Source of the DNA: Candidatus Pacebacteria bacterium CG_4_9_14_0_2_um_filter_40_15
GTDB taxonomy: Bacteria; Patescibacteriota; Microgenomatia; UBA1400; PJMF01
NCBI GenBank assembly: GCA_002788675.1
Contig: PFRS01000001.1
Location: 234,706-298,705, forward strand
DNA length: 64,000 nt
Reading direction: 5' to 3'
Positions 38,040 through 64,000 of the stretch are shown piece by piece; position 1 is the first letter of the stretch; every line of letters starts with the position of its first letter. The notes under the pieces were generated by a model, which saw only the letters and a program-made list of their open reading frames with translations, ran no database searches and was not told the DNA's origin. Position numbers and translations under genes: made by a program.

Positions 38040-40034
38040 TTATTTCTCAGGCGGAGCGTAATCATCTATCGAATAGAGATTTTGCGATTTTCGCTCAGTT
38101 GTGTCCGTTTGCATCTTTTGCTGAAGCTTTTGTTGAGCAGCAGGCTGATTGGGTGTTTGTGCTTGAGGTGGATGTACGTTATCGGCCGCAGCAACTTTTG
38201 CTGCTTGTTGTCGTTTATATATTTCTTCAGGGTTTGTGGTAATGAGTTGATGTTCTTCATCAGAGGCAACAACGCGCAATGCTACATGGTTTTGACCTGC
38301 AAAGAAAATACCTTCACCCACATCGGCCGTGACGAGAAGCTGTCGCTCTCCTTGTGATAGGTAGAATGTTTCAGCTAAGACGGGGATTGAAGCAGTTGAC
38401 TGCTTCATTAAGAATTGAATCGAAGCATTTGTAACAATTGCTTTTCCGTAATCGTTATGGATAAAGTCTTCAACGTCCTGAGTAATAGTCGTGATGCCTA
38501 AGTAGTATTTGCGAGCGCGTTTCACCATAGAGTGAATAAATGAAGCTGAATCTGGATGTTTCATAAAGTACCAGGCCTCATCAACAACGAGAATGCGTTT
38601 TTTGAGATCTTTTTTCACACGAGTCCAGATAAAGTCCAAAATCATATACATGGCAATTGGACGCATTTCTTCTTCCATTTCTTTAACAGAGAAGACAGTC
38701 AACTGATTGGTAATGTTTATGTTTGATTTTTGATCAAAGATACCTCTAAAAGATCCAGTAATGAATTTTTCAAGGCGGGCAGCGATATCATTGGCATCAT
38801 TATTTTCCATACCAATAAGTGCTTTGTAGACGTCCTCCATGAGTGGTGGCTCGTTTGTTTGAGTAGCCGGATCCGGGGTGATACCCTTTGCTTTATAGGC
38901 TGCAACAAGTGCTCTATCAAGCAAGGCTTCTTGCTGAGCAGACATTACTCCCAACATAACTTTAAGGAGCCCATGGAGAGATATAATTTTTTGGCCGAGT
39001 TCGTTTTCACCTTCTTCATACAGATTGGAAAGATCGAATGGATTAATTTTAGATTCAGAACTAAACGTGAAGTTAATGTATTGCCCTTCAACAGCTACTG
39101 CCAGATCTTCATATTCGTGTTCCGGATCAAGTACAATCACTTCTGCACCAAACATAAGTTGTCTGAGAATTTCGAGTTTAACGGTATATGATTTTCCAGC
39201 ACCAGATTTTGCGAAGATGACCATGTTGGCATTTTCCATTTTGAAGCGGTCAAAGATGATCAATGATTCATTATGCTCGTTAATGCCATACATGATTCCG
39301 GTTTCCATGGTGAGTTCACTTGATGTGAAGGGAAAGGTTGTTGCAAGAGATGTGGTATCCATGTTTCGAGTAACTTGGAGCTTGTCCACACCCATTGGGA
39401 GCGTCGACTTAAAACCATCGTCCATTTGAAGCGTGGCTTTTTTAGAAACAATTAAGAGAGAACCCAACGTAGACTGGATAGCTTTAGTAACTCTATCGAG
39501 TTCATCTTTATCTTTTGCCTGAATAGTTACGTACAAACCAAATTGAAAGAATCTTTCAGAACCTTTTGCCAATTCTTCACGAATGTAGCGAGCGTCCTCA
39601 AGTTTAACTTCAGTATTAATGTTTGAGATTTTACCGGCACGAAGGTCTGATTGGATTTCAGCTTCCATTTCAGTAATTTTTCTTTTGAGGTTGTCAAGAA
39701 TTTCACCTGAATCGACAGGATACACAAACATTGAAACATTTATCTGATGAGGAAAGTTAATAAGTGGTGAAAGCCAGTTAGCTGGAACGGATCGGGGATA
39801 CCCCGCCACAAACAGTGTCCGGGTAAAGGTCTCATTAATTTTTTGAAAAGTGAAGTCAACTTCAATGGCTTCAGGAGCAATAATGTCTTGAATAGTGACT
39901 AAGCCTCGAGAGAACTCTTGCAGTTTTTCGAGTTCGCGCTTTTGTTTTTCAAGCTCTTTTGCTTCAGGAGTAGCTTCTGCTGGAGCAGCAGTTTTTTTCT
40001 TTCCAAATGGTAGTAGTGAGCTTAAGTCGGGCAT
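38040..40034 (-). CDS. VirB4/TrbE/CagE-family T4SS ATPase
   Basis: Walker A AKSGAGKSYTVK; Walker B ILVVDEAWYFM; ITTITQDVEDF; size and order of motifs typical of VirB4. Confidence 0.8.
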   Translation of the reverse strand: MPDLSSLLPFGKKKTAAPAEATPEAKELEKQKRELEKLQEFSRGLVTIQDIIAPEAIEVDFTFQKINETFTRTLFVAGYPRSVPANWLSPLINFPHQINVSMFVYPVDSGEILDNLKRKITEMEAEIQSDLRAGKISNINTEVKLEDARYIREELAKGSERFFQFGLYVTIQAKDKDELDRVTKAIQSTLGSLLIVSKKATLQMDDGFKSTLPMGVDKLQVTRNMDTTSLATTFPFTSSELTMETGIMYGINEHNESLIIFDRFKMENANMVIFAKSGAGKSYTVKLEILRQLMFGAEVIVLDPEHEYEDLAVAVEGQYINFTFSSESKINPFDLSNLYEEGENELGQKIISLHGLLKVMLGVMSAQQEALLDRALVAAYKAKGITPDPATQTNEPPLMEDVYKALIGMENNDANDIAARLEKFITGSFRGIFDQKSNINITNQLTVFSVKEMEEEMRPIAMYMILDFIWTRVKKDLKKRILVVDEAWYFMKHPDSASFIHSMVKRARKYYLGITTITQDVEDFIHNDYGKAIVTNASIQFLMKQSTASIPVLAETFYLSQGERQLLVTADVGEGIFFAGQNHVALRVVASDEEHQLITTNPEEIYKRQQAAKVAAADNVHPPQAQTPNQPAAQQKLQQKMQTDTTERKSQNLYSIDDYAPPEK

Positions 40035-40048
40035 TAGGTTCTATCTTA

Positions 40049-41599
40049 CTAGATTTCTGGGAGAGGAGGAAGGTCTGCTCCAGATTTTTGGTCGTTAGTT
40101 GGTGTTGCTGCTTGAACAGGTTCCGTTGTAGTGGGTATCTCAAAAATTGGTTCGATTGGTGATCCCAGTGAAGCTGCTTTATCTGGACTGGTTGTGTTCA
40201 TAACAGCACCGGCATCAGGAACAACAGCACTTATTGGTGAAGGTGCAGCTTGTTGCATATTGGGTAGTGTGGGTTTTGGTAGATCAGATGAACCAGTTGT
40301 GGAAGCAAGCGTTGGCCCTACAACCGCAGGTTTTGGTGTTGAAGGAGAACTCTTGATTGGAGATTGAGGAACAGCGACAGGTATTTCAGAAACAGTAGGT
40401 TCAGCCTCTTCAATAGTTGCTGTTTCAGTTGGAGTTGTTGTTTGTGATGGAACAGTTGTGTCTGTTGGTTTTTCAATAGCATTAGTTGGTTCTGGTTGAA
40501 TTGGTTCTGTTGAAGCAGTGGGTTCAGCTAGAGTAACAGCTACTGGCTCGGGTGATGCTAGGGGGTCTGGTGTCGCCGGTGCAGGACTTTCAGTTGGCTG
40601 GACAGCAACTTCAGGTTGTGTTTGGGCATCGTCTACAGGAGTAGGTGTTGCTGGCATTTGAGTTGGCGTATAGCCTTGAGTTGTTGCCGTTTGAGCTGGA
40701 AAAGAAGTGCTTTCTTGAGGAAGCGTTATTTCAGAAGGAAGTGTTACTGGGAAATCGGGTGATAGCTGGGCAGGAATACTTGCAGGTTCAGGAACGGGTG
40801 TTGGAAGAGCTCCTGGGAGAGTAGCTTCTTGTTCTTGAATAGCTGTAGCTGCCGCTGTGGCAACAGGAACAGGCTGATTCATGGTTGGGTTTTGAGCGTC
40901 GTTCATCGTGGCTCCTTCAACTCCAGCTGTGACCATTGGAGTGGTGTAATTACTAGTGTCAGAAATTTGCTGCCCCTCGGCCGCTTCTGGGTTATAGCTT
41001 ACATAGAAAAATTGAATGATCTCTTGAGTTGCTAGTTGTCTAGCAAAAAGTCCAATTCTTCCAAACTGGGCAAGTAAGTGATCTCGTTTTGGTTCAAGTA
41101 AATTGCGAGCCTTTTCAATTACAGCAGTGCGTTGCTCGGGGTTAATAGCTGAGGTATTTGACTGACCAGGCATGATACTCTGAGCAGGTAAAATTCCCAG
41201 CTCGATAGGCGCTGCTGAAAGTGCCACATAGAATTTTTTATCAAGAACATTTCTTTCTCTAATTAAATTACCGACAAACTCTCGATAGCGACGGATTCGC
41301 TGTTGCTGTGTTCGAGATGTTGATTGATCTTCTTGGTCTTTGAGAATTTGAAGATAGCTAGTTACGTCTTTTGTTTGTGAATGGATAATAATCTGAATTG
41401 GATAGTTAAGAGAATTGAGTAATCCTGCATAAGAATACATGATGCTGTCTTGTTCTTCTTCAGCAAGCAAACCGAAGTTCATTGCATCAACTTGAATAAT
41501 AAGAGAACAGGTACCATCCTTGAGAATTACCATGTTATTAGTAATATCGAAAATATCAAGAAATTTTTGAGTGGTTGAGTGTAAAATATTTTCAGTCAT
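40049..41599 (-). CDS. Hypothetical T4SS-operon protein: about 240-aa N-terminal domain plus 270-aa Pro/Thr/Ala-rich tail
   Basis: No TM; the tail is PTxxP/TTPTE-type low complexity; 14 nt upstream of virB4-like. Confidence 0.4.
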   Translation of the reverse strand: MTENILHSTTQKFLDIFDITNNMVILKDGTCSLIIQVDAMNFGLLAEEEQDSIMYSYAGLLNSLNYPIQIIIHSQTKDVTSYLQILKDQEDQSTSRTQQQRIRRYREFVGNLIRERNVLDKKFYVALSAAPIELGILPAQSIMPGQSNTSAINPEQRTAVIEKARNLLEPKRDHLLAQFGRIGLFARQLATQEIIQFFYVSYNPEAAEGQQISDTSNYTTPMVTAGVEGATMNDAQNPTMNQPVPVATAAATAIQEQEATLPGALPTPVPEPASIPAQLSPDFPVTLPSEITLPQESTSFPAQTATTQGYTPTQMPATPTPVDDAQTQPEVAVQPTESPAPATPDPLASPEPVAVTLAEPTASTEPIQPEPTNAIEKPTDTTVPSQTTTPTETATIEEAEPTVSEIPVAVPQSPIKSSPSTPKPAVVGPTLASTTGSSDLPKPTLPNMQQAAPSPISAVVPDAGAVMNTTSPDKAASLGSPIEPIFEIPTTTEPVQAATPTNDQKSGADLPPLPEI

Positions 41600-41638
41600 T
41601 TTTGTATACTTGTATCTTAGCTGTTTTAGCGGCTACGC

Positions 41639-42832
41639 TCAACTCAAACTTCGAACTTCAATTGGTTGTACCAAGTCTCCGGTTAATTGAATACTCATTG
41701 GTTCAAAAGAGAAGCCATCTTTGTCGACTGTTATGGTGTAATTCCCGTTTGCTAACGGCGTGGTCACAAAGAATTGACCGAGCGCATTTGTTTTAACAGC
41801 TCTGGCAACTGTGCCATCTTGTTGCAAAATTTCGATTATGGCATTAACAATGAGCTCATTATTTGGAGAAAGCACCATTCCAACGAGTTTATTTGGTTCA
41901 CTTGGAGATTCTGGGAAAGGTAGATTTGTGTTGAATTCAGCCTGGTCAGCCATCGTTTGATCATTTTTTGTGCCGTATGCTTCATTACCCATAAAGGTCA
42001 TTGAATCTTCAGCTGGTGTAGAAGTAGTGTCTGTTTCAGCCTCCACAGCTTGTTTGTTTGGATCAACAACAGCAATGAGTTGCGTTTCGGGAATGGCGAT
42101 TTCTTGAGCTACATCTTTGGCATCTTGTTGTTGTTTTGCAAGGACATTGCGTTGCGTGTACATATCAGTTAGGGCTGAGTCTGAGCTGGGAACTGCTCCA
42201 ACAGCATGAGTAGCATTTTGCTGAGGTAGTGCTTGTCCTTCAGCTGAGTACACAACATTTTCTTGGTGTAATGGTCGTAAGTTACGCACGCGCACTCCAA
42301 GTTTGGGCTTGGTGATTCTTCTTGATTTAGCTGTAGTTGGATCTGACTTAACGCTTGAAAAAGTACCCAGAATTGCATTCATTCGATCGATTTCATCTGA
42401 ATCAAATGAGTAAGGGTCTTCAACATTGGGAACAGATGTTAAGTATTCACGGATACGTTCTTTTTTAACTGGGCCTAGATCAACGTCCATCTCGGTGCGA
42501 GGACTAGACATATTTGGTGTAAAACTAAAAACTTCCGGAACATGAGCCTCTCGTTTCCAAAAGAATTGAGTTGGTTTATACATAACTCGAATAAAAGTGA
42601 GAATCCAGTGATCAAGTGGCCGTTCTTCAATGGGTAAAAATGCGATTAGTCCACCTGAAACCCCGGAAAAGAGCATAAGGGGATATTTAATAGCCGCGGG
42701 AAGATTTGTAGAGTAAAAAAGAGCAGCAAGACCTACACCCAGAGCAATTTCAACAAATTGCTTCAGAGTCATGCTTCCAATAATATGGAATTTATAACCG
42801 GTGATGTCTTGAGGAATTGGATGTTCTCTCAT
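41639..42832 (-). CDS. PrgI/VirB3-like two-TM N-terminal module fused to a large C-terminal extension with carboxypeptidase-regulatory-like beta-sandwich
   Basis: HPIPQDITGYKFHIIGSMTLKQFVEIALGVGLAALFY plus a second TM resembles PrgI-family (Gram-positive VirB3 analogue) openers; C-terminus NGNYTITVDKDGFSFEPMSIQLTG is CarboxypepD_reg-like. Confidence 0.45.
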   Translation of the reverse strand: MREHPIPQDITGYKFHIIGSMTLKQFVEIALGVGLAALFYSTNLPAAIKYPLMLFSGVSGGLIAFLPIEERPLDHWILTFIRVMYKPTQFFWKREAHVPEVFSFTPNMSSPRTEMDVDLGPVKKERIREYLTSVPNVEDPYSFDSDEIDRMNAILGTFSSVKSDPTTAKSRRITKPKLGVRVRNLRPLHQENVVYSAEGQALPQQNATHAVGAVPSSDSALTDMYTQRNVLAKQQQDAKDVAQEIAIPETQLIAVVDPNKQAVEAETDTTSTPAEDSMTFMGNEAYGTKNDQTMADQAEFNTNLPFPESPSEPNKLVGMVLSPNNELIVNAIIEILQQDGTVARAVKTNALGQFFVTTPLANGNYTITVDKDGFSFEPMSIQLTGDLVQPIEVRSLS

Positions 42833-42932
42833 GATAGGGCAGCCTCTACTTCGATGTGTTCATCATACCAGGAAATTGTCCAACAATTCTAGTCTCGTGT
42901 GATGTTTCATTTTTAGCAGTGCTCAGACACTA

Positions 42933-43565
42933 TTAGCGAGGAAAAGCCTCTGGCTGAGTTGCTTCTGTGCTTAATTGACGCCCCCAGTTGAGCATAAAGG
43001 TTTCTGTGTCGGTTGGTTCAAAATGCCAAGTTTGATTAATAACTTTATTTGAGATGTTGGCAACAATTACTAAGCCTTCATCTAAAAATACGTGTGCTTT
43101 AACATTTTCATTCACTTGAGGTGCGAATAATTCAAAGTCGGGCTCACCATAGAGAGTGATGTAGTTTGAAAGTGTATTGTTTTCATCGAACTTTGCTGGA
43201 ATCTGAATAAATTCGACAATTCCTTCTTTATTTACGAGTATCTCATTATGATAGGCTGCAAAATGTTCAGAGGAATAGGTAATATGTTGTTTTTCAGCTG
43301 GTAGATTCTCAACTTCGAGAGGTTTTCCTAACTCTTCGAGCAGTTTTGGAGTCAGTTTAAATCCAGGAGTTAGGCCTTGCCATGTGTTTTCTTGAACGGG
43401 AGGTTCTTCAATGGGAATAAACTGTTGAACTGCTGATGCGATTACCAGCAACACTGCCAAGACAGCTAAAAAGATGAAAATAATTTTTGTATATTTATTT
43501 TTTTTTGGTTGCTTTGATTGCTCGTACGCTTGATTCTGGTATTTGTGGGCATTTTGTTGTTGCAT
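42933..43565 (-). CDS. Membrane-anchored hypothetical protein (translationally coupled, TAATG overlap)
   Basis: ATG at 43565 overlaps the TAA of the upstream giant gene; TM IIFIFLAVLAVLLVIASAV; 210 aa. Confidence 0.4.
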   Translation of the reverse strand: MQQQNAHKYQNQAYEQSKQPKKNKYTKIIFIFLAVLAVLLVIASAVQQFIPIEEPPVQENTWQGLTPGFKLTPKLLEELGKPLEVENLPAEKQHITYSSEHFAAYHNEILVNKEGIVEFIQIPAKFDENNTLSNYITLYGEPDFELFAPQVNENVKAHVFLDEGLVIVANISNKVINQTWHFEPTDTETFMLNWGRQLSTEATQPEAFPR

Positions 43566-46500
43566 TAGTATTCTATCCCTCCAAAAATATTTTCTTGAAT
43601 CCATGCATATTCTACCGGATAGCGAGACTTGAATGGGAACATGCCTGTCCAGCCATCATTGCTGAAGCTGAGTGTTTGCCAGACAACATAGTCTACAACA
43701 GCTTCTGCAAATGCTTCACCCTCTGAACAGTTACCCGGAACTGGATAGGTAAAGCAGCCGGAATCTCCGGGAAGCGGAGAGGTCTGAATTGCTTTGAATT
43801 GTGTTTGTAAATCTGGCATTGATGGAACAGCTGGTTGGTTTCTAGCATTTATCATATGCCCAGTTTCATGGACTATGGTGTATTCCATCCATTCCACGCT
43901 TGAATTAAAGAAGTCACCGTAAAAACCAATTTTTTCGGTGTTCACTCTCCAACCATAGTATCCTTGAGGGCTTGGTGGCCATTTATGTAGTGAAATATCG
44001 CCTTTTTCACAGAGAAGTGACAAGTACTTGGGATTAGTTCCAACCTTGCTAATAAATGCTCTTAGGAATTTTATAATGTCATCTTTAGTCCACTCAACGG
44101 AGGTATTTACGATAGTTTGGCCAGCGTCATTTTTATATTCTGTTGGTTGATCAGCAGGGGCAAACTCAAAACATCCAATCGGAGGATCTCCTATAATTAA
44201 CATACCGAGTGCCGAGATACTTTCTCCTTGTATTAGGAGCTTTCCGCTGCCGTCATATACGTCAACAACAAAGGTAACGGTATTAATTACCAATGCATCT
44301 TCACCAGAAATTGGCAGCGTATATTCAGCTGTTTGAACGGTTGAAAATTTTTCTTGATCAAAGTTATCAATAGTTAGCGGAGAGTCTGGAACTGTTGCCT
44401 CACCGCCAAGAACCAAAAATTCGTCAGTGACGCGTTTAATTTGCAGGGCATAGCCAGGCTTGGGAAGTATTTTAATTTCGTATGAAATGTCCTTTTCCTC
44501 ATTGTTGTCAATTTCATCAGGCGTTGGTGTTTTTACTATAGTTGCGTATTTAGAGACAGTTGGAGTGCCTTTACTAATGGTAAAGGGCATCGGTACCAAA
44601 AAAGCACCCATGATGACCATAAAAACAATCAATGTCATAAATCCAGGCAAAATAACACTTGTCCCCACTGCGATTGCGGGAAGTGAGGTTAAAAATGAAC
44701 CAGTAGCTGCTGCAGCAGCTTGCAGTCCCGATACTGTTGCAGCCGCAGGAGCAGTTGCTGTCGCGGTGGATCCAGCAACGGCTTGTTGACCGATGTTAGT
44801 AACAGCCTGTACAGCATTGCCTGTTCCTTGAATAACCCCATTTGCTGCTGCTTGGGTACCTTTTGCAATTTGGAGAGGTGTTGTAGCGCTTGTTCCGCTG
44901 CCAAAGACGGAGTTTGCTCCAAATGAGGGAGCGCTGAGCCCTGCGCTAGCAGTACCAGTGGCTGGGCCCTTGCCTATGAGGTTCATGAACCAATTTTGGG
45001 CGGCTAGACCTGCGTTGGCGCCAGCAGACACTCCTAAAAATATAGCGAGTGGGCTTCCAACTCCAAGTACGCCACCTATAATTCCACCAGCAACTCCTCC
45101 AATCATACCTCCCACAGTTTGAAGGGCTTGAATGGTTTTATAGATCAGGGCGCCAACAGCGCCAGCAGTGAGACCAGTTAGGGCTAGGGCTAGTTTTTTT
45201 GTATTTTCTTTACCAATAAGTAATTCAAGTGCTCGAGCTCCAGCAACAACTGCAGTACCCACTCCGGTACCCATAGCAAGTTTTTCTGCAATTTTTTTTG
45301 CAGCTTCGGTTTTGATTTTGCTTGAGGCTGGGTTACCAGCTGCTGCCTTAAATGCGCCCGAAAGCTTTGATGCTGTTCCGGTAGCGGCAGCGACATTATC
45401 AGAACCTGATCCAGTTTTTTTGTTTGAGTCTCCGCCCGATGAGATTTGTTGCTGTGAGACGACCATTTCTTGCAAGCTTTGTTGATCGAGCGGCACTTGC
45501 TCATGCATCTGATCTAAAACTTTTTCATCAATTTGAATTACGAACTCGTTTCGAATGTGAAGGGATAGTGTTTCAGCTCGTTGAACGGTTACAACATATT
45601 CGTTCATCTCTTGAGCTATTGCTAGTTGCTCAAGTTGCGCTTCTTCAGCGACTGTTTGTTCATCAATAATTATTTGAGTGTACTTTTTTAAAAATTTTGG
45701 ATCGAGTTCAGCAATGTTAATTGGCATGGGATATCCCTCAGGAGGATGTTTGCCATCTGGGGTTGGATAATATGCTCCCAGTAGTGCCATTGCAACTGCC
45801 TGTTCTTCAGGTTTAAGGCTGCGCCAAGTTAATCCAAATATTTTTTCATTTTGTTCAAGAGCACGTTGAATTTTTTTTCCTGTTTTATCACTTGTAGTTG
45901 AAATTGCATCTGCAGTAAGTTCACCCTTTTCATCACCACTTGATGCATGAGAAGTAATGGTGTTTCTTACACTGTTGATCAACTCAACTGATTCAGCAGA
46001 GCCCAGGTCTGCATCACCAATAAGACCATCTTTAGTTTTTTCTTCTTGTGTATGTAGTGTGAGTTCAGACACTCTAATTTCAACAAATGAAACAAGAGTT
46101 CCCTTAAGGGCTTCAACTTGATCAGGAGTTAAATCATATGCGGAAAGACCAAATATAAGTTCAATTTTTTGTTTATCAAATGAACTAATAAGCCCAATGG
46201 CTTTGTCACCATGGGTAATCGCTATACTTTCAACAATTTTTTCAACATTTTTATCAACTACTGGATTTTTATCATTAATAATTGAATGCAGTTTTTTCTC
46301 AAAAATTTCTTGAGATGAGCGAACCTCGTTAAATTGAGGAACATTATTTTTTTCGTAAAAGTTTTTTTCTCTAAGTAGTCTGCTTAATCCTCGTATAGCT
46401 TTGAGTCGGGCAGTTGGACTACCAGAAAGCAGAGCTGCTAGGTCACCTTCTTTACCTAAATATTGGGTAGCGTAGTCAGTTAATTGGGCCCTCAATGCTG

Positions 46501-47308: not shown

Positions 47309-47370
47309 GATTCGATTATACCAGGGAAAACAGTAGTTAGAAAGTTGGCATGTTAATTTTTTACTTTAAA

Positions 47371-55654: not shown

Positions 55655-56617
55655 ATGTTAGATCAGGCTCAGTTAAATACAATTCGATCCTATTTTGAAC
55701 AGGCCCATACAGTTACCATCGTTTGCGGGGTAGAACCCAGCATTGATGTTTTGGCCGCAGTTTCCGTTTTAAACCAAGCCCTTGCTTCTCAAGGAAAAGA
55801 AATTCAGTTAGTCAGTCCAAATACTATAGATTCTCCCGTTGTTTCAGGACTGGGTGGGGTAGAAGACTCAATTGGTAATCAGAACTTGGTTGTAAGTTTT
55901 CCCTATGATGAAACAGCTGTCGACAAGGTGAGTTATCATATTGGTGAAGATTCAGGTCAGTTTTTTCTTACCATAAAGCCAAAAAAAGGTCATGATCCTT
56001 TAGATTCTAATCAAGTTGAGTTCACCTATGCAGGAGTTGAAAGTGATTTGCTTGTACTGGTTGGTGTGACAAACTTCGATGAACTCAACCAGCTCTACGT
56101 TGGATATGAAGAGTTCTTTGAGAAAACTCCAAAAATTTCATTTACTGCTAATGGTTCTAAACTCGGAAACGTAAATATTTCATCTACAGGCTATTCGTCG
56201 ATTAGTGAATGCTTATTGGTTCTCTTAAACAGCTTACAAATCGATTTTTCAGTTGATAGTGCGACTAATTTGTTCTCGGCAATCGATGTGGAAACTGATT
56301 ACATGCGCTCACTAAAGGCAAGCGCTATTACTTTTGAAGCTGTGGCTCAACTCATGAGACTCGGTGCTCGCAGAGTAAGGCCTGAAAAACTACAAAAGCA
56401 AGATGTTGGGCAGAAAGTTTCGACTCGTCCTCTACAAGAAACAGAAATAGCAATTTCAAGTTCAAAATCACAAAAGAAACAAGATTCTCTAACTGAACAA
56501 CAAAATCAATCTAAGAAGATGAAACTGAAAAAACACAAACAGTCTCTTCCTAAAGATACAAGAAACCAACCTGGTGGTCTTAAGTATGATCCATCTAATG
56601 GTATTTCACGAAACTAA
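55655..56617 (+). CDS. DHH/NrnA-like fold protein with degenerate catalytic motifs
   Basis: Layout resembles NrnA-type DHH phosphoesterases (VTIVCGVEPSIDVLAAVSVLNQAL; LVLVGVTNFDEL), but the canonical DHH and GGGH motifs were not seen. Confidence 0.3.
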   Translation: MLDQAQLNTIRSYFEQAHTVTIVCGVEPSIDVLAAVSVLNQALASQGKEIQLVSPNTIDSPVVSGLGGVEDSIGNQNLVVSFPYDETAVDKVSYHIGEDSGQFFLTIKPKKGHDPLDSNQVEFTYAGVESDLLVLVGVTNFDELNQLYVGYEEFFEKTPKISFTANGSKLGNVNISSTGYSSISECLLVLLNSLQIDFSVDSATNLFSAIDVETDYMRSLKASAITFEAVAQLMRLGARRVRPEKLQKQDVGQKVSTRPLQETEIAISSSKSQKKQDSLTEQQNQSKKMKLKKHKQSLPKDTRNQPGGLKYDPSNGISRN

Positions 56618-56672: not shown

Positions 56673-59600
56673 TTATTTGATCTCACAAGTAGCAGTTCTC
56701 CATGGTGCCCAATTGCCCCATGCTTTTCTGAGATCGACCATAGCACGAATATTATTATCAGCCTTGATTTTTTCTTGCTCAGCAGTATCTTGTTCAACGG
56801 GAGTTGCTCCTGGAGGTAAATGTGAGTTGATGCGGGGTTGTGCAAATGAACCAATGGCAACTTTGGAGAGAGCACACTCATTAAGTCGTTCTTGGTCAAC
56901 AATGGTACAGGGCAGTTTGTAGGGATCATAGGTTGGGGCCGTATCGGGAATGCCACTACCATCTTTAAAAGCTCCTGGACAGCGAGGGAGCATATTTATC
57001 TGGAACAGACCAAGACTATAGTCAACAGATTTTCCTTCAAGACACCTATCATTGAACGCGTACGGACTGCTTCCGCTTTCTCTTTGACAAATAAGCGATG
57101 CTTTAAGTGCCTCGGTCGATGCATTTTCAAAACCAGCTTCAACAAAAAATGGTTCAAGATACTCAGGTGCACAGTACCCAGTGCCTAGTTTTTTAAGGCC
57201 ACAGGTCTCAAAATCTAAACTGCCATCAGCACCATCGTCGATATTTTTGAGGGCACCACCTGAACATTGCCCAAGTAAGAAGTGTTCCAAAGTTGGACAG
57301 GAGTCAATGTAACTGTGCGTGGCCGCTGTTGTAACTATAAACTCCTTGGTAACTGTATCTTTTGTTCCGACATAGACAGAGTTTAAAGAAAGTTGCACTT
57401 GTCGGAGCCAAAATCCAAGTTTTGCTCCGAGGAAACCAATACCTTTGTTGTCAGTTTCGATGGCAATTGAGACGTGTTCATTACAGACTTTAGGAATTGG
57501 TGAGGCTAACGGATCGTCTGGATCAATTGTTGTACCACAGTCCTTATCTGGATCAGGGAAATCAAATGATGCTGTGCCTCCAGCAACACCCATCAGGGCT
57601 CCTTCAATAGGGAAGCCATCTAGGATGCGCCCGCTTTGAGCTATCTGGTCCTTTTGGATGGAAGTGAAGAATGTGTTCATCATTACATTTTCAATTTCTT
57701 CGAGTTCAAAACCCATAGGGTAGACGAGGTAGTAGTCTGCAGTTGTTTTGCTCTCAGCTGGTGACCAAGTATCTGGACCGATTGTCCAGATGGTTTTAAT
57801 TTTTTCATACCAGGGATCAGCTGTTTTTGCTTTTTGTGGATCCATGTAGTTGTCATCGACAACATGGGTTCGATCGGCGTATTGACCAGAACCAAATAAA
57901 TTGAGTAGTAGTGTATTGCCCCACTCATTTAAGTACACTTTTCCATAGGGATCTTTAGGATCTCCTAGCCCTGCATAGTCATTTATTTGTACTACTGGTT
58001 CAGTTTCCTTGGTGTCACAGCCATAGGCCGCTCCGTTTACAATGTCGACAACTGCTTTACCGAGTTCATTCTGACAGGCTGGCGTTCCAACTCCATCTGG
58101 ATAGGATCCTTCATAACAGTAAATTTTGCTGCCTTCATTTTGAGATACAGCTGCTTCTGCTTGCAGTTGTATCTGACGGCGTCTTGCTGGACGATCAACG
58201 TCTTCGAGTTCTCGTATTTGATCACGTCTTAAAAGTATATTTCGAGTTAAATATGATGGATCATTCCAGTAGACACTACCAGAATCATCACCGCCACCTT
58301 TATTTGTAGCAATATCTGGAATTTTAAAGCCAATTACGAGTACCTCGTTTCGGGGCGCTCCCTTTTCAGTTTTACCTGTGAAGAAATTGAAGATTTTTCC
58401 AGCAAATTTGCCGCTTTTTTCTGGCTGTTTCATGTTGAGTGAGATAACCAAGAAGGCTAACCGATATGAGCGATTAATTTCCAGTGGCACATTTTGAAGA
58501 TCTTGTTTGAATTCAACAATATCTGGTGTTTGCTCAGTTTCTGGTGAGTAGAGACGTCTGCATTCTGCACTAATGCCTCCATCTCGATATGTCGGCATGA
58601 GTTCATGCATATCACCACGAACAGCATCTATAATCTTTCCAGTTCCTGGAACTTTTTGGGCAAGAAGGGTACATTCACCAGGATTAATGAGTTTTTCACA
58701 CATTAATTCAGTTGCTAAGAGCACTCTTGCAGATTGCACACAACGTTGTTGTTGACTAAGAAGAGAGTTTATTGGGGCTGAGTTAATTTCAGAGTAGCTA
58801 GGATCTTGGGTGTATACGTCTTTAAATCCAAAGTATTCCTCGAGAGAGCTCATAAGGTATTTAGTTCCTTCTGTGTCTCTCCAGATAGGTATTGTGGCAT
58901 TTGTCATGTCCCCCGATGCGACTGAATCAACAGCTATGTTAACCACAGGATAGGCTCCGGGATTTGATTTGTGAAGTTCAAGGTAGCGGGCAATAAGACC
59001 TGAAGTGTTGTATTTTGGTTTAATTTCAATATTCTCAGCAGCACAGTAGGCTTCATATCCGGAACTGGTTAGATCTTTTCTAATTTTATCAACGTCTCTC
59101 TCACCAGTGAGCATTCCTGAAATTGGTTGAAGATAGAACTGGTCTTGGTTTATGTTGTATTCAGGAAAGTCGCTTAAGTCGTAGCCGCCACTTCCACTGC
59201 CAGCCGTGATTGTGGAACAGCTTGTATCAACTTTTGTACCACCCCAGGTGAAGAGTTCACCCTCGACGTACACGAGCCACTCCCCTTCGCTTTGTAATTC
59301 TGCACAGACATTTCGAACAAGTGGCGTAATTTGCGCTGCGTTCATGCTGCCGGCTTTACTTGAAATAAATTCAAGAACTTTATTCAGATCTGTATCTGGA
59401 GGATCGTCACCACCCGGTGAAAGGGAAAACTCTGTAATATAAAGTTGTGAGCCGCCGGTACCTTGCACACCAACACTTTGTGTATCAGTTGAACCAGGAT
59501 CGCAGTCTTTACTGGTGCCACCGATACATCCATAGGAGTTTGCAGTTCTAATTTTTGCAGCTGAATAGGCACCGCCTAGACCAGACGTATCTAAAAAGAG

Positions 59601-60137
59601 CTGTGCTTTATATGCTGGGTCTCCCATGTACCAGTCAAGTGCCGATGGAGCTATATTTCCTAATCCTTTAACAGAATTATAGTTTGAAGCATAGCGTAAC
59701 CAGTCGGTACAACCAACATTATCGGAACTCCCATTATTGACTTCATTTCCGTAGGCAATGATGACATCATCACCAAAAGCTGCCTTAACTCTGTTGACCA
59801 TGGCAATCGCATCATCTGAAGCAACGGTACACGAATAGTTAATACGGACAATAGGGAAGAGCCCATTGTTTTTTGCGGCTTCAGCAAGATTATTGAGTGT
59901 ACCTTGATCTAGTCCCATGTCAGCCATAATGGTGACGGGAAAACCTGGCCGGTTACCGATAACGCCATTCATGACACTTATTTGAGTTCCAGGATCACCT
60001 GCACCAAGATGTGTGCCAATAGCAGCCTGTGCTCTAGCAGGCACAAGAAGGAAGAGTGTGAATAAAAGAAGACTGGAAAGTAATTTTTTGAGTGATCTCA
60101 CAGGCCTTATTATACCGTTAATTACGCTATTGAACAA
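56673..60137 (-). CDS. Giant (1154 aa) secreted protein with C-terminal VirB1/SLT-like lytic transglycosylase motif
   Basis: Signal peptide LLLFTLFLLVPARAQA. C-terminal CQRESGSSPYAFN...SLGLFQINM matches the SLT catalytic Glu-Ser and GLMQ(I/V) motifs. The N-terminal 950 aa is of unknown fold. Confidence 0.55.
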   Translation of the reverse strand: MFNSVINGIIRPVRSLKKLLSSLLLFTLFLLVPARAQAAIGTHLGAGDPGTQISVMNGVIGNRPGFPVTIMADMGLDQGTLNNLAEAAKNNGLFPIVRINYSCTVASDDAIAMVNRVKAAFGDDVIIAYGNEVNNGSSDNVGCTDWLRYASNYNSVKGLGNIAPSALDWYMGDPAYKAQLFLDTSGLGGAYSAAKIRTANSYGCIGGTSKDCDPGSTDTQSVGVQGTGGSQLYITEFSLSPGGDDPPDTDLNKVLEFISSKAGSMNAAQITPLVRNVCAELQSEGEWLVYVEGELFTWGGTKVDTSCSTITAGSGSGGYDLSDFPEYNINQDQFYLQPISGMLTGERDVDKIRKDLTSSGYEAYCAAENIEIKPKYNTSGLIARYLELHKSNPGAYPVVNIAVDSVASGDMTNATIPIWRDTEGTKYLMSSLEEYFGFKDVYTQDPSYSEINSAPINSLLSQQQRCVQSARVLLATELMCEKLINPGECTLLAQKVPGTGKIIDAVRGDMHELMPTYRDGGISAECRRLYSPETEQTPDIVEFKQDLQNVPLEINRSYRLAFLVISLNMKQPEKSGKFAGKIFNFFTGKTEKGAPRNEVLVIGFKIPDIATNKGGGDDSGSVYWNDPSYLTRNILLRRDQIRELEDVDRPARRRQIQLQAEAAVSQNEGSKIYCYEGSYPDGVGTPACQNELGKAVVDIVNGAAYGCDTKETEPVVQINDYAGLGDPKDPYGKVYLNEWGNTLLLNLFGSGQYADRTHVVDDNYMDPQKAKTADPWYEKIKTIWTIGPDTWSPAESKTTADYYLVYPMGFELEEIENVMMNTFFTSIQKDQIAQSGRILDGFPIEGALMGVAGGTASFDFPDPDKDCGTTIDPDDPLASPIPKVCNEHVSIAIETDNKGIGFLGAKLGFWLRQVQLSLNSVYVGTKDTVTKEFIVTTAATHSYIDSCPTLEHFLLGQCSGGALKNIDDGADGSLDFETCGLKKLGTGYCAPEYLEPFFVEAGFENASTEALKASLICQRESGSSPYAFNDRCLEGKSVDYSLGLFQINMLPRCPGAFKDGSGIPDTAPTYDPYKLPCTIVDQERLNECALSKVAIGSFAQPRINSHLPPGATPVEQDTAEQEKIKADNNIRAMVDLRKAWGNWAPWRTATCEIK

Positions 60138-60173: not shown

Positions 60174-60608
60174 TTATAAACCTGAATCAGAAGATGGAAT
60201 TCTGAACTGTGTGATGAGACTAATTCCGGTGAAAGAAGCAATCAAGTTAAGGATAATAAATGCACTCAGGGCTACCACCATACCAATAACAGCATAAGTC
60301 ATTGAACCTTTAGCAGATTGGAGTTTTCCAGTGTCTCCTCCAGAAAGCATCCAAGTGATTGCTCCAACGACAAACATTACAAATCCAGCGAGTCCTATGA
60401 TTGTAATAATTACTGTAAAAACATTTGCAATTAAGCACTCAAGACCTTGTAGTGTAGCTACATCCTGTTGACCTTCAGCTGAACCAACACAGACGCCGCT
60501 CCAGGCACGAGTTTGTGCTTGTGCAGGAGTAGCAGCCAAAAAATATACAGCTAGCATTGTAGCGGAGACATTTAGTTGTCGAATGATTTTTTTTATTGCT
60601 GGTTTCAT
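60174..60608 (-). CDS. VirB2/TrbC-like two-helix mini-protein (candidate T4SS pilin), paralog 1
   Basis: Signal peptide (AATPAQAQT); helix 1; loop WMLSGGDTGKLQSAKGSM; helix 2. Confidence 0.5.
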   Translation of the reverse strand: MKPAIKKIIRQLNVSATMLAVYFLAATPAQAQTRAWSGVCVGSAEGQQDVATLQGLECLIANVFTVIITIIGLAGFVMFVVGAITWMLSGGDTGKLQSAKGSMTYAVIGMVVALSAFIILNLIASFTGISLITQFRIPSSDSGL

Positions 60609-60655: not shown

Positions 60656-61198
60656 CTAAGATAATGTTTTGGTGTTTTCAAGGACTTCTTGTAATGACTC
60701 AAATCCAAGAAAGTTCAAACCTAAAGTAAGAATAGCAAAACTTGAAGCTAAAATAATCAAGCCAATTATTGCTGCTATCAGACGTTGTCGTGCAGAATCA
60801 ACTTTGCCTTTATCTCCACCAGATGTGATCCAATAAAAGCCAGCGAGGATAAGTTGAAGAAAGACTAATAATGCTCCAAGAAGCATTACTAAACTTAAAA
60901 TCGCGTTAAAAAGAGTACCTACATTCGTTGCAAATCCTGTTGGAATGGTAATCCGAACATCTTTAAGAAGGTCATGTTTTATTTGGGCAGAAGTAGTACT
61001 GATTTTTTGAGCAGAGTTGGTCGCCGTTGTTGTTAAGTAGAGCGTTTCCCCGTCACGGTGTGTGGTAACGTCGTTACCTGTACCAGCAGCAAGAACAGCT
61101 CTGGGTTGGCAGAAGAAAAAAACAGTCATGAGTAAGAGTATAAAAAGTAATGTTTTTTTCATAACTAGTATTATAGTATCTATATCAAAATATATCAA
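60656..61198 (-). CDS. VirB2/TrbC-like mini-protein, paralog 2
   Basis: Signal peptide; loop YWITSGGDKGKVDSARQRLIAAIIGLIIL between two hydrophobic helices. Confidence 0.5.
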   Translation of the reverse strand: MIYFDIDTIILVMKKTLLFILLLMTVFFFCQPRAVLAAGTGNDVTTHRDGETLYLTTTATNSAQKISTTSAQIKHDLLKDVRITIPTGFATNVGTLFNAILSLVMLLGALLVFLQLILAGFYWITSGGDKGKVDSARQRLIAAIIGLIILASSFAILTLGLNFLGFESLQEVLENTKTLS

Positions 61199-61242
61199 AC
61201 ACGCTTGGCGTGTTTTTTAGCTTAAAGAAGCTAACGGCTGTA

Positions 61243-61272: not shown

Positions 61273-61292
61273 TTCTAGTTTCTATTTTTAGA

Positions 61293-61700
61293 TTAGTTAC
61301 TAATTGATTTAACGTTACTGAATGCATCTCCAAGGTTTTCGAAGCCGATGAAGTTAAGAGCAATCAAGAGAATTGCGTATGATGCAGCGAGAACGATAAG
61401 TCCAAGAACAGCTGCAGTAATTTTGTTACGAGCAGATTCGGTCTTGCCTTTGTCTCCACCAGAAGTAATCCATTCGATGCCACCCCAGATGAGGTACATG
61501 AATACTAAAAGTGCTGCGAGAACCATGACGAATGAAAGCACACCATTGATAAGTCCACCAATGCTGGTTGCAAATCCTGGTCCTGGAGTAATTTCTTCTC
61601 CAGTATCAATACCTTGGGCAAGTACTGGTGAAACAGTAGCCAAGTATGCTGTTCCTGTTGCTACGGCTGTAGCGAACGATTTTTTGAGTGAGTCTGTCAT
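61293..61700 (-). CDS. VirB2/TrbC-like mini-protein, paralog 3 (terminator-flanked, candidate major subunit)
   Basis: Signal peptide (VSPVLAQG); loop EWITSGGDKGKTESARNKITAAVLGLIVL; followed by tandem terminator hairpins. Confidence 0.5.
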   Translation of the reverse strand: MTDSLKKSFATAVATGTAYLATVSPVLAQGIDTGEEITPGPGFATSIGGLINGVLSFVMVLAALLVFMYLIWGGIEWITSGGDKGKTESARNKITAAVLGLIVLAASYAILLIALNFIGFENLGDAFSNVKSISN

Positions 61701-61790
61701 GTGTCTCCTTATTTTTTTTACGGTTACAAACTTATATGTAATTATACCTATGTTCCAGACTAATAGTCAAGCATGGTTATCGAGGCGTCT

Positions 61791-62366
61791 TTAGCACTTA
61801 CTAAAGTCGTACCCTGAAATCTGATACTGAGCGCCATCTTGACAGAAGCATGGATCATAGTGGTTATAACTTAGGTGACTATCTGAGCCAAAGCATTGAA
61901 CCATTGCGATTCCTTGAGAACAATATCCAGCAGAACCACCAGCACTTACGGTTTGTTCCGTTACGGTGCAAGAAGCTTGGCCACCACCACCTCCAGCTCC
62001 ACCACCACCATTTGCAGTAGGTGATCCTAAAAAGGTAAACACTTGAATTCCTAAGAATTGTTGCACAATCATAAAGAGGGCAGTTACAGCTGAAAGAACA
62101 ATTATACCTGTGACTGCACCGGTAATTCTCTGGCGAGCTTTTTCAAGCTTGCTTTTGTCCCCTGCAGATGTGATCCATTCGATGCCACCCCAAATGAGGT
62201 AAAAGAAGACCAGTAGAGCAGCAATAAGCATGATGAAAGACATGATGCTTCCTACGAGTGGGCCAAAACCTGAAGCATGATTTGCTGGATCTAAAGAAGC
62301 TGTTCCTGGGACTGCATTGTCAACAGCTTTTTGTGCAAAATCGAGTTGTACTTGTGCGAGTTTCAT
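61791..62366 (-). CDS. VirB2/TrbC-like mini-protein, paralog 4 with Gly-rich/Cys C-terminal extension
   Basis: Loop EWITSAGDKSKLEKARQRITGAVTGIIVL; C-terminus GGGGAGGGGGQASC followed by a Cys-containing tail. Confidence 0.5.
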   Translation of the reverse strand: MKLAQVQLDFAQKAVDNAVPGTASLDPANHASGFGPLVGSIMSFIMLIAALLVFFYLIWGGIEWITSAGDKSKLEKARQRITGAVTGIIVLSAVTALFMIVQQFLGIQVFTFLGSPTANGGGGAGGGGGQASCTVTEQTVSAGGSAGYCSQGIAMVQCFGSDSHLSYNHYDPCFCQDGAQYQISGYDFSKC

Positions 62367-62386
62367 ATGTTCTTTCCAAGTGTGAT

Positions 62387-62854
62387 TTAGTGTCCTGCTC
62401 CTGGCCAGCCACCATCTGGTGCGCCGGTGCTATTTGGTGTTGGGAACGAGAGATTCAAGATTGAGAAGCTTTCACCAAAGAGCGCGGTACTTATGTAGCC
62501 AAGAATAACGAAACTTGAAACAAGGATGAGTAAACCAACAACAGCATGCATCATTCTGAGGCGGGCTTTCTCTAGTTTGCCTGAATCGCCACCTGCTGTA
62601 ATCCACTCAATAGAACCCCAAATAAAGTAGAAAAGAACGAGTAGACCACCAATATTTATGGCTGTTTCCCAGAGAGAAACCATGTAGCCGACAAAAATTG
62701 AGCCATCAGTGGCAGTTTCTGATGATTCTTGTGTTCCTCCTAAATCAGGAGTAAGGACAGGGTTGTTAATTGAGGCAAGAGCTTTTGTTGGTGAAAATGC
62801 AAACAGTGATACTGTCAGTACTAGAACGAAAAGGTAGATTAATTTCTTTTTCAT
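62387..62854 (-). CDS. VirB2/TrbC-like mini-protein, paralog 5
   Basis: Signal peptide (PTKALAS); loop EWITAGGDSGKLEKARLRMMHAVVGLLIL. Confidence 0.5.
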   Translation of the reverse strand: MKKKLIYLFVLVLTVSLFAFSPTKALASINNPVLTPDLGGTQESSETATDGSIFVGYMVSLWETAINIGGLLVLFYFIWGSIEWITAGGDSGKLEKARLRMMHAVVGLLILVSSFVILGYISTALFGESFSILNLSFPTPNSTGAPDGGWPGAGH

Positions 62855-62858
62855 AGTG

Positions 62859-63227
62859 TTATGGTGCCGGTGCTAAATCTATTAACTTTGATGCTGGTTC
62901 AAGAAGATTGAAGCCGATGATTGAGCCAATAAGTCCAATTATTCCATATGCTGCGACAACAATAACAAGACCAAGTACTCCGTGGAGCATGCGCTCACGA
63001 GCAGTTTGCAATTTTCCACTGTCACCACCACTCGTTACCCAAGAGAGTGCTGCAATAAGGAAATAGACTATAAAGAAGATAGATGCAAAAACAGTTAACA
63101 CACCAATGGAATTAGAAATAAACAACTCTAAATTTGATAGCGCACCTTCATTTGTTTCGATGCCTTCAGTAAAGGGAGCGTCTTGAGTGTTGAAGCCTCC
63201 TCCAAATTGTGCGATGAGTGTTAACAT
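62859..63227 (-). CDS. VirB2/TrbC-like mini-protein, paralog 6
   Basis: Loop SWVTSGGDSGKLQTARERMLHGVLGLVIVV; 4-nt gap to the next gene. Confidence 0.5.
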   Translation of the reverse strand: MLTLIAQFGGGFNTQDAPFTEGIETNEGALSNLELFISNSIGVLTVFASIFFIVYFLIAALSWVTSGGDSGKLQTARERMLHGVLGLVIVVAAYGIIGLIGSIIGFNLLEPASKLIDLAPAP

Positions 63228-63285
63228 AGTTCTATTATATCCTATTTGTATTTTTTTTGTACTCTATTTCTTCAAGAATGGTTTA

Positions 63286-63885
63286 CTATTCTGGAAGTGC
63301 TCCGCCAAGTGCTGGATTTAGCACAGCAGCAGAACTGCCATAGAAAATGACTCCAACAATTGCGGCAATTAAGTAGAACGAAGCAATTATGGCTAAGCCA
63401 ACAAGTCCCCATGTGATTTTATCTTTAACTTTTTCGTGTGCACTTGGGTTTCCAGCAGAGGTAACATACGTAAATCCTGCAAGAACAAAGTTAAACATAA
63501 CTATGATGCCGCCAATAACGGAAGCTAAGTTTATGATATTTGAAGCAAACTTAAAGAGGCCAATTTCACCTCCAGCTTCATCATTGTATTCAGCGACTCC
63601 TTGAGGAGGTTCAACTTCACCGATAATAGCTGAGCCACAGGGAGATGGAGATAAAAAACAAATACTTGAGCTTATACATAGGCAGCTTTTGTTGTCGACA
63701 CATTGTCCTGTATAGTTGCAAGACTGAGCTTGCACTTTTGGCGGAGTAAAAAAGAAAGCAGCTGCAAAAAACAGCCCCAAAAAAATTGAAAAAAATGTAT
63801 GTGAAAGTTTTGAATGACGTACAGACATATTATGGTGTTCCTGGTCCAGTAATAGTCGGGTTGAGTAAGTATAAGGAATTTCCAA
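63286..63885 (-). CDS. VirB2/TrbC-like mini-protein, paralog 7 (Cys-rich N-terminal region)
   Basis: Probable true start at the ATG at 63828 (MSVRHSKLSHTFFSIFLGLFFAAAFFFTPPKVQAQ signal peptide); loop TYVTSAGNPSAHEKVKDKITWGLVGLAII. Confidence 0.45.
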   Translation of the reverse strand: MEIPYTYSTRLLLDQEHHNMSVRHSKLSHTFFSIFLGLFFAAAFFFTPPKVQAQSCNYTGQCVDNKSCLCISSSICFLSPSPCGSAIIGEVEPPQGVAEYNDEAGGEIGLFKFASNIINLASVIGGIIVMFNFVLAGFTYVTSAGNPSAHEKVKDKITWGLVGLAIIASFYLIAAIVGVIFYGSSAAVLNPALGGALPE

Positions 63886-64000
63886 AAAAGACAGTACCCA
63901 AGATACCCGCTACTGCATATACGGTTACAATTAAGATCATTCCTAGAATACTCATGGTTAATCGATCACGGACTTTTATGTGTGTCTGAGAATTTCCACT
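63836..64000 (-). CDS. C-terminal part of an eighth VirB2/TrbC-like paralog running off the window end
   Basis: Manual translation ...HIKVRDRLTMSILGMILIVTVYAVAGILGTVFFGNSLYLLNPTITGPGTP* matches the ARxR-helix-2 pattern of the paralogs. Confidence 0.4.

Follow-up and report, generated by a model that had tools for sequence, protein, structure and literature searches.

Relation to Described Type IV Secretion Systems

The closest described relatives of the gene block analyzed here, a type IV secretion system (T4SS)-like locus (38040-64000) lying beside dnaA in a 64,000-nucleotide stretch (the window) of contig PFRS01000001.1 of Candidatus Pacebacteria bacterium CG_4_9_14_0_2_um_filter_40_15, are the T4SSs of other Patescibacteria, a group of very small (ultrasmall) bacteria that depend on hosts. 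In the saccharibacterium Southlakia epibionticum, the SEML1_0006-0019 cluster near dnaA is essential for epibiotic growth and contains no relaxase gene (Wang 2023, Cell, PMC10633639). A survey of 2,474 patescibacterial virB4 genes (Quinonero-Coronel 2025, Microb Genom, PMC12102498) described as the norm an MPF_FATA-like VirB4, TrsD, PrgI, VirB6, and a distant type IV coupling protein (T4CP), with relaxases nearly absent and the locus in the proximity of dnaA/dnaN; arrays of 2-11 VirB2 pilin genes were especially common in Microgenomatia. A 2025 review treats the patescibacterial T4SS as established (PMC12857230). No T4SS other than that of Patescibacteria is known to be essential to the growth of its own bearer.

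Comparison with the survey (PMC12102498) showed that the block has the same MPF_FATA-like VirB4, separate TrsD, PrgI/VirB3, pilin array, and far T4CP, the same absence of a detected relaxase, and the same location by dnaA, dnaN, rnpA, and rpmH. An earlier reading made by a model from the DNA letters alone (the sequence-only reading) had called this part list unusual; it is in fact the published norm for Patescibacteria. Since the part list, the absence of a relaxase, the pilin array, and the proximity to dnaA have all been published, the locus is a rediscovery of a known kind of system and leaves the concept unchanged. In the survey, VirB6 was scarce in Microgenomatia and non-matching neighbors were left unannotated, whereas a VirB6 candidate was delineated here, together with five syntenic families beyond the survey: a 1247-amino acid (aa) membrane protein (g1247), its bitopic partner, and proteins of 638 aa (p638), 1260 aa (g1260), and 320 aa (p320). 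The portions of the two papers and of the review available to us contain no delineation of these accessory families, no co-variation of the g1247 head with its partner, and no VirB6 candidate for Microgenomatia.

The T4SS of S. epibionticum ML1 likewise lies within a few genes of dnaA/dnaN and lacks a relaxase; besides VirB4, a TrsD-like protein, and PrgI, it includes one or more VirB6-like proteins and six PF18895 pilins encoded in tandem. SEML1_0007 (1113 aa; essential; C-terminal LAS DD-peptidase, M15-M23-like) is the counterpart of g1247, and SEML1_0006 (lysozymes) is that of the secreted wall-hydrolase giant of the window. The Southlakia hydrolase genes are located between dnaN/recF and virB4, whereas virB4 abuts dnaA in the window; its head has the LAS fold, whereas that of g1247 is HExxH zincin-like; and it encodes two "extended VirB6" proteins with ARM repeats (SEML1_0011, 0013), whereas the window has a short 592-aa candidate and a separate 1260-aa helical soluble protein. 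Counterparts of p638 and p320 have not been reported in Southlakia, and essentiality has been shown in Southlakia only.

Among monoderm MPF_FATA systems (CTn2/CD1110, pCF10 Prg, pGO1 Trs, ICEBs1 Con), the common features are the CD1110 family of VirB4, PrgI, TrsD, multi-domain wall hydrolases (PrgK/TrsG/CwlT role), and the lack of a VirB7/9/10 outer-membrane core. Those systems are mobile and devoid of VirB2 pilins, and they encode a relaxase and a linked T4CP and contain an oriT, whereas the system under study is chromosomal and fixed, with no relaxase found, nine pilins, and an unlinked T4CP. Tandem divergent VirB2-like paralogs are also found in the host-interaction T4SSs of Bartonella (Trw) and Anaplasma (VirB); however, these belong to the diderm MPF_T type and possess an outer-membrane core complex, and the homology beyond the pilin fold is not close. 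Taken as a whole, the block is very probably a chromosomal, vertically inherited T4SS of Patescibacteria (Microgenomates/"Pacebacteria"-type), derived from a monoderm MPF_FATA-like conjugation machine with loss of the DNA-processing module.

Core Motor and Coupling Protein

The motor of the system consists of a split VirB4 (a TrsD-like N-domain protein plus the ATPase) with PrgI/VirB3, and its genes form one co-directional string running into dnaA. The VirB4 ATPase (38040-40034, minus strand) corresponds to a canonical VirB4 without its N-terminal third. According to the profile analysis, its match with NF045971 (conju_CD1110) scores 379 bits (curated cut-off, 325) and extends over positions 177-734 of the 752 in the profile, and Pfam searches additionally indicated P-loop_TraG, AAA_10, and CagE_TrbE_VirB. 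The Walker A (AKSGAGKS) and Walker B/DEAW (ILVVDEAW) motifs are readable in the sequence, and the VirB4-like ATPase proposed in the sequence-only reading is thereby confirmed. The assembly collection contains 81 blocks with an identical VirB4, one of them being a 292-kb ENA contig.

Since the match covers only positions 177-734 of the profile, the missing N-domain appears to be supplied separately by a TrsD/TraC-like protein (40049-41599, minus strand), in which a VirB4 N-terminal domain separated from the ATPase (aa 1-210) precedes a Pro/Thr/Ala-rich disordered tail of ~300 aa. The protein carries a precomputed PF26593 (TraC-like) annotation. Its similarity to VirB4_plasma (positions 105-279, E 7.7e-8) and to NF041427 TrsD (E 1e-4) is below the curated cut-offs in both cases, and only the N-terminal ~45% is conserved among relatives (78 of 82 loci). 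The gene at 40049-41599 (minus strand) had been overlooked in the sequence-only reading.

The third motor component is a PrgI/VirB3-like membrane protein (41639-42832, minus strand), which the earlier reading had also recognized and which is now supported by a PF12666 match (33.5 bits, cut-off 27) and by collinearity in 73 of 82 loci. Its C-terminal beta-sandwich domain matches CarboxypepD_reg with 35.8 bits.

A VirD4/TrwB-type coupling-protein-like ATPase (T4CP) is encoded at 9585-12017 (plus strand), 26 kb from virB4. It adjoins radA (12045-13433), which is on the opposite strand, with the 3' ends of both genes adjacent. The assignment, likewise proposed earlier for this distant gene, was verified by matches with PF10412 TrwB_AAD_bind (49.7 bits, cut-off 20.5) and TraG-D_C (27.6 bits); the Walker A and B motifs are GKTGTGKST and LYVDEF. 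In contrast to TrwB/VirD4, no N-terminal transmembrane (TM) segments were predicted in this protein.

Position beside the Origin and Conservation among Relatives

The dnaA gene (36266-37894, minus strand; Bac_DnaA with 227.7 bits and Bac_DnaA_C) lies on the same strand as virB4, 145 bp downstream of it, and is followed by dnaN (34871-35980, minus strand), whose product contains all three DNA_pol3_beta domains; the block thus adjoins the chromosomal origin genes, as had been noted from the letters. The spacer between dnaA and dnaN (35981-36265) is the probable replication origin (oriC). Four DnaA-box-like 9-mers, each with one mismatch, lie within 36111-36246, and the cumulative GC skew has its minimum and changes sign near 34-36 kb. 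The 64 kb as a whole contain 16 such 9-mers against 17 expected, which is not above chance, so that only their clustering in the spacer is notable. Because the DnaA-box cluster and the skew minimum occur together, the block probably abuts the origin. Transcription from p638 through g1247, the bitopic-protein gene, PrgI, TrsD, VirB4, dnaA, dnaN, rpmH, rnpA, and yidD to yidC forms one uninterrupted co-directional string (33320-49287, minus strand). If oriC is in the dnaA-dnaN spacer, transcription of the T4SS core and dnaA runs toward the origin, head-on to replication.

To assess conservation, one genome per GTDB species was scanned by tblastn (E<=1e-3), and a VirB4 relative was detected in 403 species. 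The best 80 of these species loci (L003-L082), chosen by VirB4 similarity and having VirB4 71-90% identical, were used for the analysis of synteny. Their labels are mostly Patescibacteria, Pacebacteria/Paceibacterota, Woesebacteria, and Microgenomates, with some plainly wrong bin names. Wherever the contig extends, the order PrgI-TrsD-VirB4-dnaA-dnaN is collinear in all of these species, which is the outcome of the synteny comparison at oriC that had been proposed as a check. Among 82 loci, dnaA and TrsD were each present in 78, PrgI in 73, and dnaN in 72; in the loci without dnaA (L037, L038, L049, and L060), the contigs end within ~500 bp of virB4. Median identities were 78.5% for VirB4, 54.9% for DnaA (VirB4 being higher in 73 of 73 comparisons), and 43% for DnaN, a contrast that is somewhat inflated by the VirB4-based choice of loci. 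These values indicate that the secretion ATPase is apparently under unusually strong constraint, and its slower evolution compared with DnaA underlines the central place of the machine in these organisms.

Profile searches of all ORFs (open reading frames) of the window and of ~6.6 kb beyond it detected no relaxase or integrase; in the window ORFs, there was also no replication-initiator domain and no match with the VirB7/9/10 outer-membrane core or VirB11 in Pfam or NCBIfam; the absence of such genes, previously judged by eye, therefore stands for the window ORFs. The window contains no tRNA gene. No att-like repeat was found between the borders of the block, the longest common repeat being 12 nt and located inside virB4. 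The GC content is 0.403 in the block and 0.408 elsewhere in the window. Collinearity together with the higher conservation of VirB4 than of DnaA is the opposite of the patchy distribution of an integrative and conjugative element (ICE), and there is a high likelihood that the block is a fixed, vertically inherited system. This agrees with the earlier suggestion of a chromosomally fixed, non-conjugative T4SS-derived apparatus, which the collinearity in 80 species, the lack of mobility signs, and the equal GC content support. The suggestion that the organism belongs to an episymbiotic lineage with a reduced genome is supported by the source, a metagenome-assembled genome (MAG) of Patescibacteria ("Candidatus Pacebacteria"); NCBI places "Candidatus Pacebacteria" MAGs in Minisyncoccota, the current name for Patescibacteria/CPR (candidate phyla radiation).

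The 1247-aa Membrane Protein and Its Bitopic Partner

The membrane protein g1247 (43565-47308, minus strand) comprises a cytoplasmic N-region of ~700 aa, a Gly-rich TM cluster (aa ~730-905), an extracellular beta-rich region, and a C-terminal HExGHxxDxRN...EAFAE head. Word-indexed searches with g1247 and g1260 returned almost only the queries themselves and were replaced by iterative hidden Markov models (HMMs) on the 80 loci and by HMMER. According to the iterative HMMs, members of the g1247 family (1100-1680 aa) are present in 64 of 82 loci, always directly upstream of a bitopic-protein gene and PrgI. A C-terminal Peptidase_M23 domain was found in 20 of 30 aligned family members (best E 5.4e-20), and g1247 of the window itself has no M23 match. 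In the subclade that includes the window (13 loci), the protein ends instead in an HExxH domain of ~170 aa, in which alignment positions H250, E251, G253, H254, R259, N260, E301, and E305 are invariant in 12 HExxH-type sequences. No Pfam or PDB family matched this head; its signature is of the zincin type and points to a putative metallopeptidase-like domain.

The adjacent gene encodes a bitopic protein of 223 aa (p223; 42933-43604, minus strand; 210 aa according to gene callers) with one TM segment (aa 41-59) and no Pfam or PDB match. Its family is confined to exactly the 13 loci whose g1247 homolog bears the HExxH head. In each of the loci L003-L082, the slot between the g1247 homolog and PrgI contains exactly one bitopic gene, which occurs in three unrelated forms: ~200 aa with the HExxH head, an unrelated ~330 aa with M23, and ~136 aa in three head-less loci. 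Homology of p223 to the ~330-aa and ~136-aa slot proteins was considered and rejected, as only the TM helix aligns. By position, p223 may be a partner of the zincin-like head or a VirB8-like protein.

Because the family keeps a constant position while its M23 and HExxH heads co-vary with the form of the bitopic protein, g1247 and its relatives can be regarded as a putative membrane-anchored wall-peptidase component, in which head and partner seem to have been swapped together between lineages. A role of g1247 as a second paralog of VirB6 was considered and discarded, the hhalign comparison with the VirB6 candidate giving a probability of 2%. For a poorly covered class, this interpretation of the PrgI-side giant as a wall peptidase with a jointly swapped head and partner is one usable detail, and a VirB6 candidate where VirB6 has been reported as scarce is another.

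VirB6 Candidate, Secreted Wall Hydrolase and Pilin Array

A second sub-cluster comprises the VirB6 candidate, the giant with the SLT_3 module, and nine divergent VirB2-like pilins. The VirB6 candidate is a 592-aa polytopic membrane protein (53651-55429, minus strand), proposed by hydropathy and synteny. According to the hydropathy analysis, it has a signal peptide, an exposed N-domain of ~140 aa, six or more hydrophobic segments, and a cytoplasmic tail rich in Gly, Ala, and Lys. Profile scores were sub-threshold and were obtained with membrane proteins of monoderm conjugation systems, namely ICE_Mbov_0396_TM (E 0.029) and pLS20_p028 (E 0.3-0.8); there was no match with Pfam TrbL, and a sequence-profile search of PDB gave nothing meaningful. 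Thus, the topology and low-complexity tail on which the protein had earlier been called TrbL/VirB6-like were retained, and the family assignment was not reproduced by HMMs. Homologs with 49-50% identity are encoded at the equivalent position in loci L087-L089, and L069, L077, and L081 each contain further family members at their upstream edge.

The secreted giant of 1154 aa (56673-60137, minus strand) contains a Sec signal peptide (cleavage ..ARAQA|A) and a C-terminal SLT_3 (VirB1-like) lysozyme module. At a cut-off of 27 bits, SLT_3 scored 23.8 bits with the complete sequence and 29.7 bits with the isolated C-terminal 204 aa (951-1154), in which the ES...GLFQIN motif is readable; with the signal peptide, this bears out the description of a secreted protein with an SLT/VirB1-like motif given in the sequence-only reading. 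A sequence-profile search of PDB with the giant revealed nothing meaningful. Look-ups by exact sequence of this giant and of the T4CP yielded no record, probably owing to other start codons in the gene callers' versions. Syntenic homologs with 30-38% identity are present in L087-L089 and retain the N-terminal GNEVNN and LYITEFSLSPGGD motifs. The N-terminal and central regions are kept across relatives, and the C-terminal module differs (L087:10175-13579; L088:7593-10175). The GNEVNN and LYITEFSLSPGGD motifs are similar to the motifs of the acid/base and the nucleophile in glycosidases of clan GH-A; assignment of "GNEVNN...ITEFS" to this clan was a motif reading with no HMM support and was not accepted.

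At higher coordinates, seven VirB2-like pilin genes (PF18895) were identified on the minus strand at 60174-60608, 60656-61198, 61293-61700, 61791-62366, 62387-62854, 62859-63227, and 63286-63885. The scores with PF18895 (T4SS_pilin) range from 23.8 to 38.5 bits (cut-off 26.6), six of the seven being above the gathering score and one at 23.8; the array also gives a weak TrbC/VirB2 match. The 3' part of an eighth gene is located at 63830-64000 (minus strand), with its start past the end of the window, and a ninth gene follows past the window end; the ORFs L084:6315-6779 and 5978-6328 of the source contig (L084, L085) align with the pilin core. The array of two-helix mini-proteins recognized earlier is therefore real, with seven genes in the window and two more at or past its end. 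The proteins share the core TM1 - W(I/V)TSGGDxGK - TM2, and their pairwise identity is mostly 17-50%, reaching 56% and 61% in the top pairs. The 191-aa pilin (61791-62366) has a C-terminal Gly-linker followed by ~60 aa with 8 Cys, and the 199-aa pilin ORF (63286-63885) has an N-terminal Cys-rich stretch, CNYTGQCVDNKSCLC. These two Cys-rich pilins are possible tip or adhesin variants.

The sequence past the window end continues from the pilin genes to a divergent gene of an extracytoplasmic function (ECF) sigma factor and then to NUDIX and mevalonate-pathway genes. The ECF-type sigma factor (L084:5150-5974, corresponding to ~64635-65460 in window numbering), divergent from the pilins, has two downstream ORFs (64 and 115 aa) that are anti-sigma-like by position. 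The pilin genes may be under the control of this sigma factor.

Clade-Restricted 1260-, 638- and 320-aa Proteins

Three further conserved proteins are encoded in the locus. The soluble protein g1260 (49590-53372, plus strand) has a helical, coiled-coil-like N-half and a conserved C-half of ~780 aa with no known fold. An exhaustive HMMER search of 1.84 billion representatives found only 21 relatives. On their contigs, order and strands are alike, namely g1260 (+), VirB6 candidate (-), p320 (+), SLT giant (-), and pilins; in one fetched locus, the g1260 homolog is divergent from the g1247 gene. The NCBI record of g1260 names it a hypothetical protein and assigns it to a "Candidatus Pacebacteria" MAG. 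The AlphaFold2 model of residues 481-1260 is of good quality by its scores (predicted local distance difference test, pLDDT, 86.8; predicted template modeling score, pTM, 0.86); however, a Foldseek search of PDB with it gave only E>=2.8, and a sequence-profile search of PDB was also unproductive.

The soluble protein p638 (47371-49287, minus strand) is a conserved neighbor of the g1247 gene and has no known fold. Members of its family are found directly upstream of the g1247 homolog in 11 loci, a count limited by flank length, and 15 relatives are present in the database. The motifs QCG (aa 401-403) and GPCG (aa 493-496) are invariant. The AlphaFold2 model of p638 is mediocre (pLDDT 69.8, pTM 0.46), and the best Foldseek match in PDB obtained with it had E 0.17.

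None of the 1247-, 1260-, and 638-aa proteins matched Pfam, NCBIfam, or PHROG, in agreement with the earlier view of three giants with no assignable family; for the 1247-aa protein, this view no longer holds, as it belongs to a wall-peptidase family with a Southlakia counterpart. Of the three, a family and a fold are still lacking only for the 1260- and 638-aa proteins. Structure prediction with Foldseek, which had been suggested for all three giants, was carried out for the C-half of g1260 and for p638, in neither case with a PDB fold match. The expectation that the accessory giants are the likeliest undescribed parts is consequently retained for the 1260- and 638-aa proteins and dropped for g1247, whose counterpart is SEML1_0007.

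The third protein, p320 (55655-56617, plus strand), has a DHH fold and a basic tail, with no DGD and DHH catalytic motifs and no DHHA1 domain. It has no Pfam match. A profile of 3 homologs showed similarity in PDB with the TM1595 DHH/DHHA1 phosphodiesterase (E 3.6e-6) and a RecJ-like protein (E 3e-4); the positions of the catalytic motifs are occupied by PS(I/L/V)D and SFT/TIH/AIS. Identification of p320 as a DHH phosphoesterase (NrnA/RecJ/TM1595) was rejected in favor of a fold-level relation, DGD and DHH being replaced and DHHA1 absent. Homologs with 39% identity are syntenic in L087-L089.

The 1260-, 638-, and 320-aa families are thus syntenic and, by the sequence searches, clade-restricted, the first two with no known fold. 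They are probably clade-specific cytoplasmic accessories or substrates. As three cytoplasmic families, two of them foldless in PDB, they provide candidate substrates or adaptors and are the likeliest source of novelty in the locus.

Proposed Function and Alternative Explanations

In the proposed machine, VirB4 with its split N-domain, docked by PrgI/VirB3, would energize a membrane channel of the VirB3/VirB6 type. The two hydrolase-bearing giants would open the cell wall of the epibiont itself and/or of its host; since the catalytic heads are swapped between lineages, the host wall is hinted at as the target. The pilin paralogs would polymerize into a VirB2-type pilus or conduit touching the host bacterium. 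By analogy with S. epibionticum, the apparatus would most likely transfer macromolecules (proteins or others) between the epibiont and its host, and not conjugate DNA. The oriC-side position would be ancestral and fixed in the clade, and it may raise gene dosage.

An ordinary ICE, or a decaying remnant of one inserted by chance beside dnaA, could be suspected because the best VirB4 match is a conjugative-transposon family (CD1110 of CTn2) and a T4CP exists in the genome. Such an origin is nevertheless highly improbable: an integrase, relaxase, tRNA target, and att repeat were not found in the window and the ~6.6 kb beyond, the GC content of the block equals that of the flanks, the far border consists of housekeeping genes (ECF sigma factor, NUDIX, mevalonate pathway), and the position and gene order are constant in all 80 species, with VirB4 more conserved than DnaA. 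A fixed machine could still work inward, taking up DNA, nucleotides, or other nutrients from the host in a manner similar to archaeal Ced or Helicobacter ComB, which would suit an organism unable to make nucleotides. VirB4 shows sub-threshold matches with the CedB and CedD profiles (E 4e-17 and 7e-8, respectively), the T4CP adjoins radA, the locus contains the conserved degenerate DHH (RecJ/NrnA-fold) protein, no relaxase was found, and T4SS loci of the class ABY1 co-localize with comF, recG, and radA (PMC12102498). However, the CedB and CedD scores are far below the cut-offs and reflect the generic ATPase fold, and the 320-aa protein has no catalytic motifs. In Southlakia, deletion of comEC ends competence and leaves viability unaffected, so that ComEC-dependent uptake cannot explain the essentiality of the T4SS (PMC12857230). 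Import is considered unlikely.

A role mainly as an adhesion organelle, in which a VirB2 pilus of variable subunits binds the host with no translocation, as in Bartonella Trw, is somewhat less likely again. The presence of nine divergent paralogs of the pilin (two having Cys-rich extensions), the published comparison with pilin amplification in Bartonella and Anaplasma, and the unlinked T4CP would agree with such a role. Against it stand the very strong purifying selection on VirB4, TrsD, and PrgI and the fact that two large hydrolases of the wall have been retained, as have several conserved accessories in the cytoplasm; moreover, adhesion of Saccharibacteria is attributed to type IV pili. 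It is also doubtful, to about the degree that import is, that the locus represents a distinct T4SS subtype, in which new parts (g1260, p638, and the dead DHH protein) would replace relaxosome and coupling functions or be substrates, and the swappable heads and partners would be tuned to host walls.

Several points weigh against the preferred interpretation, a vertically inherited T4SS that exchanges macromolecules with the host. Its function is deduced from gene content and analogy. The T4CP is distant, may have another role, and is reported as non-essential in Southlakia. Membership of the 592-aa protein in VirB6 has an E value of 0.03 at best, and no VirB8-like protein was matched by HMMs among the window proteins. 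The relaxase search covered 64 kb and ~6.6 kb of the genome, the oriC call uses four imperfect DnaA boxes and GC skew, and module swapping is the single argument for targeting of the host wall.

Other Genes of the Window

The remaining 38 kb of the window encode mainly housekeeping proteins (Obg, Rho, RadA, LeuRS, L25, RNase H, Jag, YidC, YidD, RnpA, and L34), and also contain genes for the wall and pili, as well as several ORFs that matched no family. Five consecutive ORFs at 14409-19784 (minus strand; 312, 195, 294, 273, and 626 aa) have no Pfam match on record. The genes that come next (20112-24026) encode a solute-binding protein of 624 aa and a protein with VanW/PG_binding_4. A DUF4012 ORF of 1029 aa (29189-32278, minus strand; TTG start; 1019 aa according to gene callers) is located between the L25 and RNase H genes in the origin-proximal housekeeping string. 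Two candidates for envelope or host-contact functions separate from the T4SS block are a type IV pilin-like protein with the N_methyl motif (454-1167, minus strand) and a protein with LysM and M23 peptidase domains (4868-6013, minus strand).

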